This document shows, piece by piece, positions 19,691 through 42,842 of a stretch of DNA of 64,000 bases (positions are counted from its first letter, which is position 1; each line of letters opens with the position of its first letter). The position numbers were made by a program, and so were the translations under genes. The notes under the pieces were generated by a model. It was not told the DNA's origin. It saw nothing but the letters and a program-made list of their open reading frames with translations, and made no database searches. Location: contig CAVZPD010000009.1 of the NCBI GenBank assembly GCA_963777045.1, positions 371,009 through 435,008 of the forward strand, written 5' to 3'. The stretch is from an uncultured Chloroflexia bacterium. GTDB lineage: Bacteria > Chloroflexota > Limnocylindria > QHBO01.

Positions 19691-19955
19691 TTCCGTGGTG
19701 CCACCCTGCGTTCGGACCGGAGGCTCGCACTCGTCGCACACGGGCTCGCGTTCGAGCCGATGTGCCAGGCCGCGGTAACGGGGCCGACCGTCGCCGCCTA
19801 CTTCCGCCGGCGCAATGCCGCAGCGCGGGTTCGGAGCGAGGCTCGCGGGGCCATTCGCCCGTCCGTGTCACGCCGGCTTGCACCATCCCCGGCTCGCTGT
19901 GGTGACCGATGGCGGGGTACTCGTCCCGGTCGTCGCCGTCTTGAGTTGAGGCCGC

Positions 19956-20701
19956 ATGCTAGGCGGGCCGGTCTGGCGGCGTCAAGGGTGTGCCATCCTT
20001 TCGGCCGTGGAAGGGCAGCGCACCGCCATCGTCACCGGCGCGGCATCGGGGATCGGCGCCGCCGTGGCCGCTCGTCTGCGCGGCTCGGGCTGGCGGGTCA
20101 TCGGCCTGGACCGATCCCACGGGGTCGACGTGGTCGGTGACGCCGCCGATGCATCGGTCCTGGGTGAGGCTCTCTCGCATGCCGGCGAGCGTCTGGACGG
20201 GCTGGTCTGCTCGGCCGGGCTCCCGCCGTCCGGCCCGTGGGATTCGCGCGAGCACTGGGACGAGCTGTTGCGCGTCAACCTGACCGCGCCGTACGAGGCG
20301 TTCCGCGCCTGCCATGCCGGCGCTGGCCGCCGCCGCGGGGGCGGCGGTCTTCGTCGGGAGCATCGTCGGCGCGGTCGAGGGGTCGCGACGTTCGCCCGCC
20401 TACGCCGCCTCGCGCGCCGGGCTGGAGGGGATGGCGCGCTCGCTGGCGCTCATCGGCGCGGCCGACGGCGTGCGCGTGAACGTGGTCGCCGCGGGCGCGG
20501 TGGATACGCCGTTCGACGCGCTTCTTGGCCCCGCCCGACGACCGGCCGGACGTGCCACTGGGCCGGATGGCGGCGGCGGACGAGGTGGCGGCGGTGGTGG
20601 AGTTCCTACTGGGGGAGCACGCGTCCTACGTCACGGGCGCGGTCTGGCGGGTCGACGGGGGCAGGACGGTGCAGCCGGGGATCGACCTCCGGCACAGCTG
20701 A
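19956..20701 (+). CDS. short-chain dehydrogenase/reductase (SDR); 2 frameshifts
   Basis: [19 protein letters not shown] (the TGxxxGxG motif), then [35 protein letters not shown], then a C-terminus ...[24 protein letters not shown] in three different frames. The TGA is at 20699-20701. Confidence 0.6.
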
Positions 20702-21136: not shown

Positions 21137-21166
21137 TTGACAGCCGCCAACCGGCGCCGCTAGAGT
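21137..21166 (+). promoter_or_regulatory. sigma70-like promoter of the aro operon leader (TTGACA - 18 nt - TAGAGT)
   Basis: cTTGACAgccgccaaccggcgccgcTAGAGTcc. The predicted transcription start at ~21173 is only 6 nt before the leader ATG. Confidence 0.5.
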
Positions 21167-21178
21167 CCGCGTCCTCAG

Positions 21179-21205
21179 ATGAACAACTACTGGTTTTACG
21201 CTTAG
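21179..21205 (+). CDS. 8-codon leader peptide MNNYWFYA rich in aromatic codons (candidate aroF attenuation leader)
   Basis: ATG AAC AAC TAC TGG TTT TAC GCT TAG, with an in-frame TAG 6 codons upstream. Four of 8 codons are Tyr, Trp or Phe. It lies between the promoter and a terminator, ahead of the DAHP synthase gene. Confidence 0.55.
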   Translation: MNNYWFYA

Positions 21206-21258
21206 CGGGTACGAGGCAGGCGGGTGATCCCGTCAGCAGAGGCACTCGTGCCCGCAAA

Positions 21259-21292
21259 CGCAGTGGTCCGCAAGGACACTGCGTTTTTTGTT
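21259..21292 (+). terminator. rho-independent terminator in the aroF leader (attenuator)
   Basis: cgcagugGucc-GCAA-ggacacugcg forms a 10 bp stem with one bulge and a GNRA-type tetraloop. It is followed by UUUUUUGUU, 65 nt upstream of the aroF ATG. Confidence 0.6.
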
Positions 21293-21357
21293 ACCCCGGT
21301 CGGCGGGGCGGCGGGACCGACGCCTCGGAAGCCTCCGAACGGAGAGGACCGAACAAG

Positions 21358-22390
21358 ATGATCGTGGTGATGTCCCCAATGGCGACCAGGGAGGACGTGA
21401 CGACCGTGCGCCGCCACATCGAGGAGCACGGGCTGCAGGCCTTCGTGAGCACCGGGCAGGAGCGGACCGTCATCGGCGTCGTGGGCCTGAACCTCGAGCG
21501 GCTCGCCAACATCGGCAGCCTCGACGGGGTCGACCAGGTGATCCGCGTCACGAACCCATACAAGCTCGCCAGCGTCGAGCACCACCCGAGCGGACGCGGG
21601 TGATGGTGGGCGACGTGCCCATCGGCCTCGGGGACGACCTGGTGGTGGTTGCCGGCCCCTGCTCCGTCGAGAACCGCGAGATGCTGCTCGACACCGCCCG
21701 GTGGGTCGGCCACGAAGGCGCCCGCATGCTGCGCGGCGGCGCCTACAAGCCACGCACCTCCCCCTACTCCTTCCAGGGGCTGGGCGAGCCGGCGCTCGAG
21801 ATGCTGGCCGAGGCGCGCGAGGAGACGGGCCTCCCCGTCATCTCCGAGGTGACCGACGCGGCCGATGTCGAGCTCTTCGACCGCTACGTCGACGTGCTGC
21901 AGGTCGGCAGCCGCAACATGCACAACTTCGTCCTGCTGCGGGCGGTGGGGCAGTCGTCCCACCCGGTCCTGCTGAAGCGCGGCTTCGGGGCGACCATCGA
22001 GGAGTGGCTGATGGCGGCCGAGTACATCCTCTCGTCGGGCAACTCCAACGTGATCCTGTGCGAGCGCGGCATCCGCACCTTCGAGACCGCCACGCGCAAC
22101 ACGCTCGACCTCTCCGCCGTGCCGGTCCTGCGCGGCAAGACGCACCTGCCGATCGTGGTGGATCCCTCGCACGGCACCGGGCAGCGCGACCTGGTTGGGC
22201 CGATGGCGCTCGCCGGCGCGGCCGTCGGCGCCGATGCGCTGCTGATCGAGGTCCATCCCGATCCGCCCAAGGCGCTCTCCGACGGCGAGCAGTCGCTCAG
22301 CTTCCCGGAGTTCGGGGCGCTGATGGACGAGCTGCGCCGCATGCAGCTGCTGCGCGACCGGGCCGCGCGCGTCCGGCGCCGCGCCCGGTG
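21358..22390 (+). CDS. aroF: 3-deoxy-D-arabino-heptulosonate-7-phosphate synthase, type I-beta with an N-terminal ferredoxin-like regulatory domain; frameshift near 21600
   Basis: [29 protein letters not shown]...[12 protein letters not shown] is the FL domain seen in Thermotoga-type DAHPS. It then changes frame to [33 protein letters not shown]...[14 protein letters not shown]...[16 protein letters not shown]. The 3' end is approximate. Confidence 0.75.
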
Positions 22391-22692
22391 GAGGCTCCCG
22401 GCGCGCCGATCGGCGAGCTGCGCGACCGGATCGACCAGATGGACGATCGGCTGGCCTCGCTGATCCAGGAGCGCGCCGCGCTGGCGCTGGAGGTGCAGCG
22501 GGCGCGCGGCCCGGCCGGCCACGGGCACGACGTGCGGCGCGAGCGTGAGCTGCTGGAGCGGGCGGCGGCCGATGGGCGGGCCCGCTGACGCCGGAGGAGA
22601 TGACCGCCATCTTCGGTGCGCTGCTGCGGGCATCGCGCGCCGTGCAGCGGCGGGAGGCGCAGGCCGACCTGCTGGGCCAGCGCGGCGCGTGA
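22388..22692 (+). CDS. chorismate mutase (AroQ class); one frameshift
   Basis: GTG 22388 gives [41 protein letters not shown].... It then continues in another frame ...[36 protein letters not shown]. Confidence 0.6.
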
Positions 22693-24001
22693 GCGCGAGC
22701 CGAGCATCGCGCCTGCGACCGGTCCGGCGGCCGGCGCGGCTGCGGGGCGAGCTGCGACTGCCGTCGGACAAGTCGGTGGCGCACCGGGCGCTGATCGCGA
22801 ACGCGCTGGCCGGCGGGCCCGCGACGGTCGACGTTCGCGCGCCGGGCGATGACGTGTGGAGCACGGTGCGCTGCCTGCGCGGGCTGGGCGTGGAGTTGAC
22901 GAGCGGCACGTGCGGGGCATCGGTGCAGCTGGCCTGCGTGGGACGGGTGGCGCAGCCGGCGGGGCCGCTCGACTGCGGCAACTCGGGGACGACGATGCGG
23001 CTGCTGGCCGGGGCGCTGGCCGGCTTGCCGATGGAGGCGACCCTGGACGGCGACGCCTCGCTGCGGCGCCGTCCCATGGAACGTGTGGCGGCCCGCTGCG
23101 GCAGATGGGGGCGGCGGTCGAGACACGAACGGCCTGCCGCCGCTGCACGTCCCCGGCTCGGAGCGGCTCCGCGCGTGGAGCATCAGCTGCCGGTGGCCAG
23201 CGCCCAGCTGGTGGCGGCGATCTGCCTCGCGGCGCTCTCGGCGGAGGGCGAGACGCGGATCGTGACGCCCGCGCCGACGCGCGATCACACCGAGCGGCTG
23301 CTGGCCGCGATGGGCGCGGCGATCGAGCGGCGCCGGACGGTGCGACCGTGCTGCATGGTCCGGCGCGGCTTCGGCCGCTCTCGTTCACCGTGCCGGGCGA
23401 CCCGTCGGCCGCCACGCCGTGGCTGGTGGCTGCCGCGATCCACCCCGACGCCGACCTGCGCCTGGTGGACGTGGAGCTGAACCCGACGCGCCTGGGTGCC
23501 GTGGAGGTGCTGCGCGAGATGGGCGCGCGGGTCGACGTTCGCCACCGGCGAGCGGAGGGCCCGGAGCCGATGGGCGAGATCCGCGTCCGCAGCGGCGGCC
23601 GCCTGCGCGCGGTCTCGCTGGCCGGCGAGCGCGTCGCGGCGCTGATCGACGAGCTGCCGCTGCTGGCCGTGGCCATGGCCGCCGCGGACGGCGTCAGCGA
23701 GCTGCGCGACGCCGGTGAGCTGCGCGTCAAGGAGTCGGACCGGATCGCCGCCGTGATCGCGGGGCTGGGGGCCATCGGCGCGAAGGTGGAGGCGCTGCCC
23801 GACGGCTGGCGCGTGCGGCGGGGGAGCGCCCGCGACGCGGCGATCGCCACCTACGGCGACCATCGGATCGCCATCGCCTTCGCCATCGCGGCGCTGGCGG
23901 GCGTGGCCGGCGAGGTGGAGGTCGACGATCCCGAGTGCGCATCGGTCTCCTATCCGACCTTCTGGGAGGACCTCGAGCGGGTGAGCGGGGGCCAGGCGTG
24001 A
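22689..24001 (+). CDS. aroA: 3-phosphoshikimate 1-carboxyvinyltransferase (EPSP synthase); at least 3 frameshifts
   Basis: GTG 22689 overlaps the CM stop. LRLPSDKSVAHRALIANALAGG...LDCGNSGTTMRLLAGALAGL...LRRRPMERV; SAQLVAAICLAALSAEGETRIVTPAPTRDHTERLLAAMGAAIE; ...LRVKESDRIAAVIAGL...DHRIAIAFAIAALAG...*. Confidence 0.75.
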
Positions 24002-25194
24002 GGCGCCTGCGCCTGCTGACCGCCGGTGAGTCGCACGGCCCGGCGCTGAGCGGCATCCTGGAGGGGCTGCCGGCCGGCCTGCGCGTCTCGACCGCGAAGG
24101 TGGACCTGGACCTGCGGCGGCGGCAGCACGGCTACGGGAGCGGCCGGCGCATGCAGATCGAGCGCGACCGGGTGACCTGGACCGCGGGGATCCGCTACGG
24201 GCGAACGCTGGGCTCGCCGGTCGGCTTCACGGTCGAGAACCGCGACTGGGTGAACTGGACCGATCGGATGGCGGTCGAGCCGATCCCCGCCGCACGGCGT
24301 CCGAAGCCGATCACCCGCGCCCGACCCGGCCACGTCGACCTCGCGGGAGCGATCAAGTACGACACCGATGACATCCGCGACGTCCTGGAGCGTGCCTCGG
24401 CGCGAGCGACCGCGGCGCGGACGGTCGCCGGCTCGCTGTCGCGGCAGCTGCTGGCCGCCTGCGGCGTCCGGATCTGGAGCTTCGTCGACCAGGTTGGGCC
24501 GATCCGCGCCTTCGCGGATACCGACGAGCCGATGCGCCGCATCCCGGACGGCTGGTTCGAGCGCGACCTGCGCGACCCGTCGCCGCTGCGCTGCCCCGAT
24601 CCCGAGGCGGAGCGCGGCGATGCTGGCCGAGATCGACGCCGTGCGCGACGCGGGCGACACCATCGGCGGCTCGTTCGTGGTCGTGGCGGAGGGCGTGCCG
24701 ATGGGCCTGGGATCGTCGTCGGAGTGGGACACGCGCCTGGACGGGCAGCTGGCCGGCGCGCTGATGGCGCATCCCGGCGGCAAAGGGCGGTGGAGATCGG
24801 GCTGGGCTTCGGCGTCGTCCCGCTGCGCGGGAGCCAGTCCACGACGTGGTCGACGGCGAGGCCGATGGTGGGCGCCGGCTCACGAACCATGCCGGCGGGA
24901 TCGAGGGCGGCATCAGCAACGGCGAGCCGATCGTGGCGCGCGTCGCCATGAAGCCGATCTCCACCCTGCGCACGCCCGCTGCCGAGCGTCGACATGGCCT
25001 CCGGCGAGGTTGGGCGCGCGCACATCGAGCGCTCCGACGTCACGATCCTGCCGCGCTCCGGCGTGGTCGGCGAGGCGATGGTGGCCCTGGTCCTGGCCGA
25101 TGCCCTCCTCACCTCGTTCGGGGGCGACGCGATGGGCGACCTGCTGGCCGCGGTCCGGCGCCGTCGTCGGCGCTCGCGGGGCCCGCGCGGATGA
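23998..25194 (+). CDS. aroC: chorismate synthase; about 5 frameshifts
   Basis: GTG 23998 ([28 protein letters not shown]) overlaps the aroA stop. Fragments are [33 protein letters not shown]; [16 protein letters not shown]; [29 protein letters not shown]; and [28 protein letters not shown], each in a different frame. Confidence 0.7.
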
Positions 25195-25961
25195 CCCCAC
25201 GCGTGGTGCTGCTCGGCAGCGGGATCGGCTACTCGGCATCGCCGGCCATGCACAACGCAGCGTTCGCGGTGCTCGGTCTCGACTGGCGCTACGAGCTGGC
25301 CGACGTCGCCGGCGGACGCGCTGCCGGAGATGGTGCGGCAGCTGCGCCGACGGTGACGCTGGCCGGAGCCAACGTGACGAAGCCGCACAAGGCGGCGGTC
25401 ATCCCGCTCCTCGACGCGGTCAGCGAGGCGGCCGAACGGGCGGGAGCGGTGAACACCATCGTCCGCTCCGCCGATGGCCGCCTGCTCGGCGACAACACCG
25501 ACCTGCCGGCGCTGGCCAGCGAGCTTGCGCGCCTCGGCCGCTTCGAGCGGGCCGTGGTGCTGGGCCGGGGTGGCGCCGCGCGCACGGCCGCCGCGGCGTT
25601 GGCGGACGCGGGCGCATCGGTCCGGATGGTTGGGCGCGACGGATGGGCGGAGCTCCCCGCGCTGCTGGAAGCCGCGGACCTGCTGGTGAACGCCACGCCC
25701 ATCGGCACCGCGGAGGACGTCTCGCCCGTCCCGGCGGAGCTGCACCGGCCCGGCCTGGCCGTGCTGGACCTCGTCTACCGACCGTCGCCCACCCGGCTCG
25801 TGCGCGAGGCGGCAGCCGCCGGTGCCGATGCGGTGACCGGCGCCGGCATGCTGCTGCGGCAGGCGGTTCGCAGCTTCGAGCTGTGGACCGAGCGCTCGGC
25901 CCCGTTCGAGGTCATGCGGCGGGCGCTCGCCGAGGAGCTGGGAGCCGCGGTCCATGCCTGA
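25191..25961 (+). CDS. aroE: shikimate dehydrogenase
   Basis: The ATG overlaps the aroC stop (ATGA). [36 protein letters not shown]...[12 protein letters not shown]...GDNTDLPAL.... Confidence 0.75.
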
Positions 25962-26470
25962 GCCGGGTGCCGGCGTCGTGCTGGTGGGGCTGCCCGGGAG
26001 CGGCAAGTCCACCGTCGGCCGCCTGCTCGCCGAGCGACTGGGGCGCCCGTTCCACGACACCGACGAGCTGATCGAGCGGCGCTCCGGCATGCCCGCCCAC
26101 GAGTACCTCCGGCGCCACGGCGAGGCGCAGTTCCGCGCGGTGGAGCGCGACGCCCTGGACGAGGCGTGCGCGGGACCGGCGCCGTGGTGGCGACCGGCGG
26201 CGGCGCGCTGCTCGACCCGCTGAATCGCTGGCGCCTGTGGGAGCACGGCCGCGCGGTCTGGCTGCAGGCCGATAACGACGTCCTCCTCGCGCGCCTCGAG
26301 CGCGACGCCACGCCGCGGCCGCTGCTCGACGGGGACGCCGCCCGGAAGCTGTCGGCGCTGGCCGAGGAACGGGCGCCGTTCTACCGCGCGGCCGACGATG
26401 CAGCCTCGGCCATGGGCACGCCGGACCAGGTCGCCGATGCCGTCGCGGACGCCGCTGGCTTGCCCGACGC
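25954..26470 (+). CDS. aroK: shikimate kinase; one frameshift, 3' end approximate
   Basis: [46 protein letters not shown] (Walker A). It then changes frame to [32 protein letters not shown].... It runs without a stop into aroB. Confidence 0.65.
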
Positions 26471-27542
26471 CACCCGGCCGGCGCCTCTTCGATGCGCTGG
26501 AGCCACGCAATCACGTCATCGGTCCGTCGCATGGCCGCGTCGTCCTCGGCCGTGGGCTGGGCCGATCCTGCGGGACATCCTCGACGAGCTGGGTGGCATG
26601 CCGTCGGTGGTCGTCGATCGCCGCGCGATGGCGCACCTCCCGCCGATCGGCGGCCGCTGCCTGGCGATCGCCGGCGGCGAGCGGGCGAAGCGGCTGCGCT
26701 CGCTGGAGCGGATCCTGGACTGGCTGGCGGCCGAGGGGGCGGAGCGGACCGACCCGCTGGTGGCGGTCGGCGGCGGCACGGTGGGCGACGTGGCCGGCTT
26801 CGCCGCCGCCACCTACGCCCGCGGCGTGCCGTACGTGGCGGTGCCGACCACCTGGCTCGCGCAGCTCGACGCCTCGATCGGCGGCAAGGTGGCGGTCGAC
26901 CTGGCGGCCGGCAAGAACCTGGTGGGCGCCTTCTGGCCGGCGTGGGCGGTGCTGGCCGATGTCGCGGCGCTGCGCACCCTGCCGCGTGCCCGGCTGCGCG
27001 ACGGACTGGCCGAGGCGGCCAAGGCCGGGATCATCGGCGACCCGGCGCTGTGGCGGCTGATCGCGGAGCGCGGGCGCGAGGCGCTGGGCGGCGACGAGGC
27101 GGTGCGCGCTACGCGATCACCGAGCGGGCGGTGCGCGTGAAGCTGGCGGTCGTCCGCCGCGATCCATTCGAGCGCGGCGAGCGGCGCGTCCTGAACCTGG
27201 GCCACACCATCGGTCATGCGCTGGAGGCGGAGGCGGGCTATCGGCTCGCGCACGGCGACGCGGTGGCGCTCGGCATGCGCGCGGTGGCCGCCATCGCGGC
27301 CGGACGGGGCGGCGATCCGGCGCTGTCCGCGGAGCTGGACGAGGTGCTGTCGGGCCTCGGCTTCCCGCTGACGCCATCGGTTCGACCCGGTGGCGGTCCA
27401 CGCGAAGCTGCGAACCGACAAGAAGCGCGTGGCGGGCCGGCAGCGCTGGCTGCTGCCGATGGCCATCGGCCGGGTGGAGGAGGTCGACGACGTGACCGAT
27501 GACGAGCTGGCGCGCGCGCTGCGCGCCATCGGGCAGGAGTAG
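26470..27542 (+). CDS. aroB: 3-dehydroquinate synthase; frameshifts at both ends
   Basis: LAIAGGERAKRLRSLERILDWLAAEGAERTDPLVAVGGGTVGDVAGFAAATYARGVPYVAVPTTWLAQLDASIGGKVAVD is the core. The C-terminus ...RDPFERGERRVLNLGHTIGHALEAEAGYRLAHGDAVALGM... and the final ...AMAIGRVEEV...LRAIGQE* (TAG 27540-27542) are in other frames. Confidence 0.7.
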
Positions 27543-27546
27543 GAGC

Positions 27547-27979
27547 GTGCGCATCCTGCTGCTGAACGGCCCGAACCTGTCGACGCTGGGCCGCCGCCAG
27601 CCCGAGGTCTACGGCACCACCACGCTGCCGGAGATCGTCGAGGCCTGCCGCGCGCGCGCCCTGGAGCGCGGCGCGATGCTGGACGACCTGCAGTCGAACC
27701 ACGAGGGGGCGCTGATCGACCGCCTGGAGCAGCTCGACTACGACGCCGTCGTGATCAACCCCGGCGCCCTGTCGCACACCAGCTACGCGCTGCACGACGC
27801 GCTGCTTGCCTGCGATCGCCCGGCGGTCGAGGTGCACATCTCGCGACATCACGACCCGCGAGCCGTGGCGGCGGGTGAGCGTCACCGCGCCGGCAACGCG
27901 GCACCAGGTGGTGGGGAAGGGTTGGCGCGGCTACCTCGAGGCGGTCGACTGGCTGCTGGAGCATGCCGGCGACGCCTGA
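27547..27979 (+). CDS. aroQ: 3-dehydroquinate dehydratase, type II; single +1 insertion near 27845
   Basis: AGGAG plus GTG 27547 gives VRILLLNGPNLSTLGRRQPEVYGTTTL...AVEVHIS. After a 1-nt shift it continues DITTREPWRRVSVTAPATRHQVVGKGWRGYLEAVDWLLEHAGDA*, which matches the canonical type II DHQase C-terminus. Confidence 0.75.
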
Positions 27980-40830: not shown

Positions 40831-40974
40831 ATGCACCCGATGAGCGCGCGACTCGCGTCCGCATCGCCGGCGCCGGCCAACCAGGCTGCGCTCGGCGGTT
40901 TCGTCGTGGTACTCGGCATTCTCCGGCTCGTCCTCCTTATTGGATGGCGGGATAGAGGACGCCGGACGGCCTGA
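40831..40974 (+). CDS. Ile/Leu/Val-rich leader peptide of the ilvBNC-leu operon
   Basis: MHPMSARLASASPAPANQAALGGFVVVLGILRLVLLIGWRDRGRRTA* (or a start at the second ATG, 40840). The run FVVVLGILRLVLLI holds 12 branched-chain codons out of 14. TTGACA at 40805-40810 lies just upstream. Confidence 0.5.
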   Translation: MHPMSARLASASPAPANQAALGGFVVVLGILRLVLLIGWRDRGRRTA

Positions 40975-40999
40975 CGGCCAACCGAAAGCGAACCCGAAT

Positions 41000-41036
41000 C
41001 CCGCCAGCCAGCAAGGCCGGCGGGTTTTTCGTTCTC
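41000..41036 (+). terminator. rho-independent terminator (attenuator) between the leader peptide and ilvB
   Basis: cccgccAgcc-AGCAA-ggccggcggg is a 10 bp stem with one mismatch. It is followed by UUUUUCGUUCUCC, about 55 nt before the ilvB ATG. Confidence 0.6.

Positions 41037-41090: not shown

Positions 41091-42842
<1,752 letters not shown>

Follow-up and report, generated by a model that had tools for sequence, protein, structure and literature searches.

The stretch of DNA analysed here (the window, 64,000 nucleotides (nt) of the uncultured Chloroflexota assembly GCA_963777045.1, contig CAVZPD010000009.1, positions 371,009 to 435,008) contains a seven-gene shikimate operon, and the subject of this work is the short leader that precedes it. 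The first gene of the operon encodes a bifunctional 3-deoxy-D-arabino-heptulosonate 7-phosphate (DAHP) synthase fused to chorismate mutase and is followed by aroA, aroC, aroE, aroK, aroB and aroQ, the seven genes spanning every step to chorismate in an order common to related contigs. The leader comprises a promoter, an eight-codon open reading frame (mini-ORF), a stem (stem A) that begins at its stop codon and encloses an inner hairpin (P2) and a purine bulge (J), and an intrinsic terminator (T) that directly abuts stem A (Table 1). Judged from sequence comparison and folding, it is probably a ribosome-mediated, leader-peptide transcription attenuator serving all seven genes.

Promoter, mini-ORF and terminator of the leader

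The sigma-70-type promoter, with 10 of 12 consensus matches, is the only promoter-like site between 20500 and 22000 (1.5 kb; chance expectation 0.1), and its TTGACA -35 box, 38-42 nt ahead of an ATG or GTG start, is kept in 18/18 related leaders (described below). The ATG of the mini-ORF lies 12 nt past the -10 hexamer, which, with a transcription start assumed about 7 nt past the hexamer, leaves a 5' untranslated region of only about 5-6 nt; since no Shine-Dalgarno sequence is present either, the message would be near-leaderless. An in-frame TAG located six codons 5' of the mini-ORF, within the -10 box, closes the frame upstream, and four of the seven non-start codons are aromatic, i.e., they specify end products of the pathway to which the downstream DAHP synthase-chorismate mutase and the rest of the shikimate operon belong.

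T ends in a TTTTTT tract (21284-21289) followed by GTT, and was missed in the window by a terminator scan because of its bulge, while the homologous hairpin in one relative (L086) was called by the same scan. Between T and the DAHP synthase start there is neither room nor signal for a promoter, and expression would therefore require read-through of T. The region as a whole (21173-21300) folds at -56.1 kcal/mol, with z = -4.25 relative to dinucleotide shuffles, none of 200 of which fold as well. An earlier sequence-only reading had pointed to this promoter, to the mini-ORF with its upstream in-frame stop, to its wealth of codons for aromatic end products and to a strong terminator with a GCAA loop, all of which are present as described (the terminator as a 13-bp stem with one bulge, supported by covariation). 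It had also placed a second stem at the leader stop, which exists with 11 bp, at coordinates differing by at most 1 nt from those proposed.

Table 1. Position of the leader elements and associated genes in the window
Feature	Position	Strand	Description
Sigma-70-type promoter	21137-21166	+	TTGACA -35 (21137-21142), 18-nt spacer, TAGAGT -10 (21161-21166)
Leader mini-ORF, MNNYWFYA	21179-21205	+	ATG AAC AAC TAC TGG TTT TAC GCT TAG; stop 21203-21205
X, aromatic-codon stretch ACUACUGGUUU	21186-21196	+	Complementary to T 5' arm; pairs only when ribosome-free
Stem A 5' arm GCGGGUACGAG	21205-21215	+	First base is the G of the TAG stop; helix 1 99.1% paired in 35 sequences
Inner hairpin P2	21216-21237	+	GGCGGG-UGAU-CCCGUC (21219-21224 with 21229-21234), GC/GC closing; 7/8 pairs changed both sides
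J, conserved purine bulge AGAGGCA	21238-21244	+	GGCA can pair UGCC of the stem A 3' arm (alternative mini-hairpin)
Stem A 3' arm CUCGUGCCCGC	21245-21255	+	11 bp with 21205-21215; encloses P2 and J
Intrinsic terminator T	21256-21292	+	13-bp stem, one bulged G, GCAA loop (21256-21286), then UUUUUUGUU
Bifunctional DAHP synthase (ferredoxin-like N domain and catalytic domain) fused to chorismate mutase	21358-22692	+	Starts 66 nt past T
aroA, aroC, aroE, aroK, aroB, aroQ	22700-27950 (approximate)	+	Several frames disrupted; Pfam matches
Second leader-peptide attenuator, before ilvB	40831-41029	+	ORF ends ...GGFVVVLGILRLVLLIGWRDRGRRTA and stop; Ile/Leu/Val-rich stretch
ilvB, acetolactate-synthase-like TPP enzyme	41091-42842	+	

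Conservation of the mini-ORF and of the RNA structure

For comparison, 18 distinct relatives of the leader were gathered from contigs of genomes and metagenomes; their DAHP synthases are 65-95% identical to that of the window. The matches listed in the contig scans were mostly distant homologues of this enzyme, and the close relatives came from nine exact-protein look-ups. In the 18 relatives the mini-ORF keeps its frame, has 8-9 codons and ends in a TAG stop fused to CGGGYACGA. The peptides (MHNYWFYA, MNSYWFYA, MNKFWFYV, MNSCWFYA, MNLVVWFYV, MTRSWFYG, MTRNWFYG, MNQNWFYG, MSHNFWFYA, MSQMWFYG, MTYQWFYG, MNPQFWFYG, MTQHFWFYA, MNHAFEFYA, MRTSWYYD and MNSYWYFS) share a W-F-Y-x-stop core in which 53 of 54 cells are aromatic (W in 17/18, F/Y in 18/18 and Y/F in 18/18), residues 2-4 being free to vary. 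Substitutions within the core include synonymous changes (TTT/TTC, TAC/TAT) and F/Y swaps that need two base changes, a pattern that, as read from this alignment, is what selection on the encoded amino acids leaves behind. These features go beyond chance, because they are kept in 18 distinct relatives, and the mini-ORF is very probably a leader peptide that senses the aromatic amino acids Trp, Phe and Tyr. The aromatic sensor upstream of DAHP synthase proposed by the sequence-only reading, which had named a lack of conservation as grounds for abandoning it, is clearly conserved.

The choice of Phe codon is also biased. The rare codon TTT (21194-21196 in the window) accounts for 17 of the 22 Phe codons of the leaders but for only 15 of 265 in the genes of the window, an enrichment of about 13-fold, and yields a conserved UUUU run (GGUUUUAC). 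This preference could reflect either a rare-codon sensitisation or a constraint at the RNA level; the use of a rare codon in the leader resembles that of some classical leaders.

An RNAalifold consensus of the 18 leaders recovers stem A, P2 and T, and a covariance model built from the same 18 sequences matches, over its full length and with E = 1e-5 to 1e-10, a second Chloroflexota leader type (17 leaders) encoding peptides such as M..YFYFRCPA and variants like MCAIYRFTCPA. When the two types are aligned jointly (35 sequences), the helices of stem A, P2 and T have 97.5% of their cells paired, against 37-47% for slid pairings, and both sides have changed in 17 of the 27 pairs, which 0 of 500 shuffles reach. 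Changes on both sides affect 7 of the 9 modelled pairs of T, and two positions of stem A swap G-C and C-G between the leader types. The aromatic codons of both types lie at an equal distance from stem A in the alignment, whereas the stop codon of the window's type coincides with the base of the stem A 5' arm and that of the second type lies 9 nt downstream, at the top of the arm. The alternative pairing of J (GGCA) with UGCC of the stem A 3' arm is found in 90% of cells, in columns that are invariant and so give no covariation test. Taken together, these comparisons indicate that this is a genuine conserved regulatory leader.

Stem A and J hardly vary in sequence even in relatives whose DAHP synthase identity is down to 65%, in contrast to the free covariation of P2 and the top of T, as one would expect of a binding site recognised by its sequence. 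An RNA element composed of stem A, P2 and J, bound by a protein or a small ligand and controlling T, with translation of the mini-ORF incidental or secondary, would account for this pattern, as well as for the failure to find an RNA-only antiterminator in the constrained folds presented below. However, the coding pattern of the ORF (frame, length, aromatic swaps, synonymous changes, start and stop) argues for its translation, and the invariance of stem A is also explicable by its overlap with the stop codon, by the mini-hairpin with J and by pairing constraints from T. There is neither an Rfam match nor a candidate binding protein, and we regard such an element as improbable.

No Rfam 15 family (including the Trp, Phe, His, Thr and Leu leaders and the riboswitches) matches anywhere in the window at gathering thresholds. 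The best sub-threshold match over the leader is to Atu_C8 (RF02502; 21178-21298, + strand, 23.9 bits against a threshold of 50, E = 0.12), a Rhizobiales small RNA whose consensus starts with AUGAUUAUUCUUGUGGUG (MIILVV) and which has a comparable layout of short ORF, stem enclosing inner hairpins and terminator. From this layout, Atu_C8 may itself be an unrecognised ilv-type leader.

Ribosome position and the fate of the terminator

Ribosome positions were modelled by constrained folding of full transcripts and of transcripts ending before the T 3' arm, in which the bases covered by the ribosome (10 nt, beginning with the A-site codon) were forced unpaired; candidate switch pairings came from a systematic list of conserved helices and from targeted pair counts for three candidates. 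Stem A is kept with the ribosome at W, F or Y and lost with the ribosome at the stop, and this is the sole structural difference between the two situations. The 5' arm of stem A starts 8 nt past the first base of the last aromatic codon in the window's type (6 nt in the second type), and owing to this spacing stem A persists during a stall but is entirely opened by a ribosome at the stop; in the actinobacterial leaders described in the next section, the 5' strand of the antiterminator also starts 8 nt from the last regulatory codon. Stem A adjoins T with no overlap. Among the 18 window-type leaders, 15 have no linker at all between the two (range 0-2 nt), and in all 35 members the G-C-rich base of stem A is harder to open than that of T (12-22 vs 6-12 kcal/mol for the lowest 5 bp).

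These elements suggest the following course of events. Transcription would begin about 5-6 nt before the ATG and the eight-codon ORF would be translated as a near-leaderless message, in which codons 5, 6 and 7 (UGG, UUU and UAC) would report the charging of tRNA-Trp, tRNA-Phe and tRNA-Tyr, while T, 51 nt downstream, would end most transcripts. A ribosome waiting at W, F or Y would leave stem A folded, and a ribosome at UAG would unwind the entire 5' arm of stem A, whose freed 3' arm could then be caught by J in the mini-hairpin. Since induction by starvation is implied by the function of the operon and by the related classical leaders, intact stem A would have to prevent termination, by blocking the completion or the function of T and thus giving read-through on starvation, and unwound stem A would have to permit it. 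Candidate ways for stem A to block T are steric abutment in the RNA exit channel, a role as a domain that binds RNA polymerase or another protein, and the proximity of the stalled ribosome; alternatively, the polarity could come about in some unusual manner. A 0-nt linker and a strong base of stem A are compatible with a steric block of T stem completion in the RNA exit channel. The attenuator reading is further supported because the same genome has a classical Ile/Leu/Val leader, located in the window before ilvB.

Several results weigh against this course. That T would fail while stem A is intact was deduced from the polarity to be expected of such an operon. T belongs to the minimum-energy structure of both Chloroflexota types whether the RNA is free of ribosomes, occupied by one stalled at W, F or Y, or occupied by one that has reached the stop; an antiterminator overlapping T and exclusive to the stalled ribosome was not found in the constrained folds, and the stalled states leave the T 5' arm unpaired before the T 3' arm is made. 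The same procedure detects classical antiterminators in the ilvB leader of the window and in actinobacterial aro leaders, and this negative result is meaningful because these positive controls succeed. Stem A, moreover, is invariant within the window's type, its support from covariation being a single difference between types, and linkers of 5 nt between stem A and T in some second-type members weaken a purely steric account. Finally, just one conserved pairing competes with T, and its partner is the aromatic-codon stretch itself. Any ribosome located there masks this pairing; stalling would therefore favour termination, the wrong polarity for a biosynthetic operon.

The toggle of alternative structures that the sequence-only reading had envisaged at the leader stop is accordingly not borne out, since T folds in each ribosome state, an outcome that it had itself listed beforehand as counting against it, and stem A abuts T without overlapping it. 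What stands of the ribosome-mediated attenuation architecture it had described is the sensor ORF, the promoter and the terminator; the mutually exclusive antiterminator was not found.

Of the positive controls, the ilvB leader forms its antiterminator at the stall by pairing GGCGGGAU (40946-40953) with AUCCCGCC (about 40998-41005), and loses it with the ribosome at the stop; its terminator hairpin, CCCGCCAGCC-AGCAA-GGCCGGCGGG followed by TTTTT (41000-41029), lies 60 nt before ilvB. A best-duplex test of uncovered upstream RNA against the T 5' arm proved powerless in such G+C-rich sequence, the actinobacterial control giving -14.9 kcal/mol vs -14.2 kcal/mol when shuffled.

The competing pairing between the aromatic codons and the T 5' arm occurs in 92.6% of cells of the 18 sequences, vs 25-59% when slid. 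It extends stem A into one long helix, predicted in 29 of the 35 members of both types; in the second type it comprises 9-14 bp, adds -8 to -14 kcal/mol, and uses another register and another sequence. This raises the possibility of a switch that responds to ribosome occupancy and whose polarity would be inverted or non-specific: an ORF strand free of ribosomes (aromatic codons and stem A 5' arm) would pair with the stem A 3' arm and the T 5' arm as the antiterminator, any leader ribosome, stalled or terminating, would favour T, and read-through would report the absence of leader translation, caused for example by poor leaderless initiation or by fast drop-off of peptidyl-tRNA from very short chains. 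The conservation and the wide prediction of the pairing fit such a switch, as do the formation of T in each ribosome-bound state and the conserved sequence of the T base beneath a covarying top, which is expected if a third partner constrains the base. Yet it gives no reason for the presence of Trp, Phe and Tyr codons, although aromatic leaders are tied to DAHP synthase across phyla and, in the same genome, the leader before ilvB is rich in Ile, Leu and Val. Starvation, moreover, could only raise occupancy and hence termination, which would be maladaptive for a biosynthetic operon. Two members with W-Y-Y and W-Y-F cores (L086 and L088, respectively) alter the paired bases without compensation in T, and 5 of the 18 window-type members lack the pairing in their minimum-energy structure. 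On balance, an occupancy switch appears unlikely.

A second arrangement, classical 1:2/2:3/3:4 attenuation, would take stem A as the 1:2 helix, J and the 5' half of the stem A 3' arm pairing with the T 5' arm as a 2:3 antiterminator when a stalled ribosome masks the stem A 5' arm. A weak pairing of this kind (GGCACUCGUGC with GCAGNGGNC) does appear in truncated folds of several members, with 83% of cells paired vs 30-50% when slid, and if the ribosome is taken to cover 13 nt, counted from the start of the A-site codon, stalling at Tyr is already enough to disrupt stem A. The conserved part, however, is a 4-bp core with a bulge that shows no covariation and is equalled in 111 of 500 shuffles, and the 2:3 pairing is far weaker than T and missing in the second leader type. 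Such a device would also answer only to the last codon (Tyr) and could not tell a stalled ribosome from one at the stop codon, as both mask the same arm; this arrangement has the lowest standing of those considered, little below that of a bound RNA element.

Models of a different, non-classical actuator are compatible with the absence of an alternative hairpin. Tentatively, the abutting stem A, alone or with a stalled ribosome at its base, could stop T from completing or modify the polymerase, i.e., antitermination could occur without an alternative hairpin. Still more speculative is a TnaC-like role of the W-F-Y-x nascent peptide, which would make release at the stop sensitive to free aromatic amino acids; such a role would, in addition, account for the pairing of vacant aromatic codons with the T 5' arm.

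Three further candidates were tried and rejected. A second ORF, starting from a GUG in the stem A 3' arm with GAGG of J ahead of it, running through T and ending, in the window, on the ATGA of the DAHP synthase start, does not keep its frame relative to DAHP synthase in the 18 relatives. A +1 frameshift at UUU-U when tRNA-Tyr is scarce would lead into a frame that is open in L083 and L089 but closes in the window, L081 and L087 within the P2 loop; it is not general, as the four-U run is missing in L088 and in the second leader type (sequences read by eye). Pairing of J with the U-tract amounts to 6 bp, mostly G-U, and is too weak, the U-tract being within the RNA-DNA hybrid at the time of decision.

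If the attenuator reading is correct, it extends leader-peptide attenuation to the Chloroflexota, for which no paper on leader-peptide transcription attenuation was found in the literature searched. The sensor would then be a minimal one, a single codon for each of Trp, Phe and Tyr, and through one near-leaderless transcript it would govern the whole of the common aromatic pathway. Its architecture presents a mechanistic puzzle, since the only conserved pairing that competes with T has the wrong polarity.

Aromatic leaders before other DAHP synthase genes

Aromatic leaders were surveyed at 155 loci of FL-domain DAHP synthase homologues from many phyla (among the matches listed), requiring a short sense ORF at most 250 nt upstream in which some stretch of six codons encodes 4 or more aromatic residues. 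Such mini-ORFs precede 50 of the 155 genes, in contrast with 0/155 on the antisense strand, 1/155 in shuffled sequence and 4/143 further upstream, from which the pairing of aromatic leader and DAHP synthase can be taken as general. Aromatic leaders thus precede about one third of the sampled loci, in several phyla and with at least three architectures, and are mostly unannotated; this may be of use to genome annotation and to metabolic engineering of the aromatic pathway.

One large actinobacterial family has 24-codon leaders with the consensus MRxQFWFWYGYRPGxRTVARQTLR, about 75-190 nt before the DAHP synthase start (loci L030, L038, L050, L058, L062, L095-L099, L101, L105, L112, L113, L116, L125, L126, L128, L142, L149, L155 and L157), and no description of it was found in the literature searched. 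The terminator of these leaders has the form GCCCCGGGCC...GGCCCGGGGCUUU, and in the five that were folded (L030, L038, L058, L101 and L126) the antiterminator is formed by the R-P-G codons (CGGCCCGG), with CGG CCC GG paired to the terminator 5' arm at the stall and unpaired once the ribosome is at the stop. Aromatic mini-ORFs of other designs, for example ..FTYFFYTYYWFWQRVG and MNISWRYYWFSFTG.., occur at L022, L032, L059, L061, L066, L071, L073 and other loci, in metagenome-assembled genomes of Acidobacteriota, Desulfurellales, Dormibacterota, Gemmatimonadota and Planctomycetota.

The classical trp, phe and his attenuators, represented here by the actinobacterial aro leaders and the ilvB leader of the window, share with the Chloroflexota leader a terminator in the 5' leader and a ribosome-controlled helix that starts about 8 nt past the last regulatory codon. 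They differ in that the classical helix uses the terminator 5' arm, whereas the partner in stem A is a separate segment that merely abuts T.

Leaders of this kind have precedents, and the novelty of aroF leaders had been overstated in the sequence-only reading. In Corynebacterium glutamicum, the leader peptide aroR upstream of aroF is experimentally known and carries Phe-Tyr-Phe codons that responded to Phe and not to Tyr, as related in two accounts that summarise Neshat et al. 2014 (PMC11802643, PMC7356990). To the extent of these summaries, aroR resembles the leader described here as a short aromatic-codon ORF directly before a DAHP synthase operon, in a high-G+C Gram-positive-type bacterium, with expression rising on stalling at aromatic codons. 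By the same descriptions, the present leader differs in its phylum, in having one codon each for Trp, Phe and Tyr, and in being eight codons long and near-leaderless; a conserved stem also begins at its stop codon, and an overlapping antiterminator could not be detected. The Acholeplasma uORFC-13-1 motif, a predicted upstream ORF with a promoter, followed immediately by an intrinsic terminator ahead of aroF (PMC8632094), has by its description an additional conserved base-paired substructure of unexplained role, a further point of likeness, but it belongs to low-G+C Mollicutes, is U-rich, senses Phe only, has another sequence and is not represented in the Rfam copy searched. Finally, the leaderless polycysteine short ORFs of mycobacteria (bioRxiv 10.1101/834739) resemble the present near-leaderless ORF in that their regulatory codons pair with a downstream segment and ribosome occupancy of these codons decides the fold. 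They act on translation, however, their Cys codons masking the Shine-Dalgarno sequence of the gene that follows, and involve no terminator, whereas in the present leader the codons pair with the terminator 5' arm, which inverts the expected sign.

The host had been taken for a member of the Actinomycetota; the nearest named relatives, among the matches listed, are instead Candidatus Limnocylindria, a class of Chloroflexota. Intact homologues of the DAHP synthase-chorismate mutase have 445 amino acids, 97% identity and the domains PF18152, PF00793 and PF01817, and the genes past it match EPSP_synthase, Chorismate_synt, Shikimate_dh_N/SDH_C, SKI, DHQ_synthase and DHquinase_II. Compared with the 97%-identical intact homologues, the frames of the aro operon are broken between 21358 and 25500 (+ strand), by a CCCC to CCC change near 21584 and by further insertions or deletions at 22366-22403 and 22570-22581 (DAHP synthase) and inside aroA and aroC. 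The ilvB frame is intact and the aro leader itself agrees with its relatives; the disruptions would be either homopolymer assembly errors or pseudogenisation.

An anthranilate synthase gene (trpE/G) lies upstream of the aro leader in divergent orientation. No Trp-rich leader is evident on inspection of the region before it (19886-19990, - strand), which holds a promoter-like TTGACG-17 nt-TAGCAT whose -10 element is overlapped by the start codon (TAGCATG).

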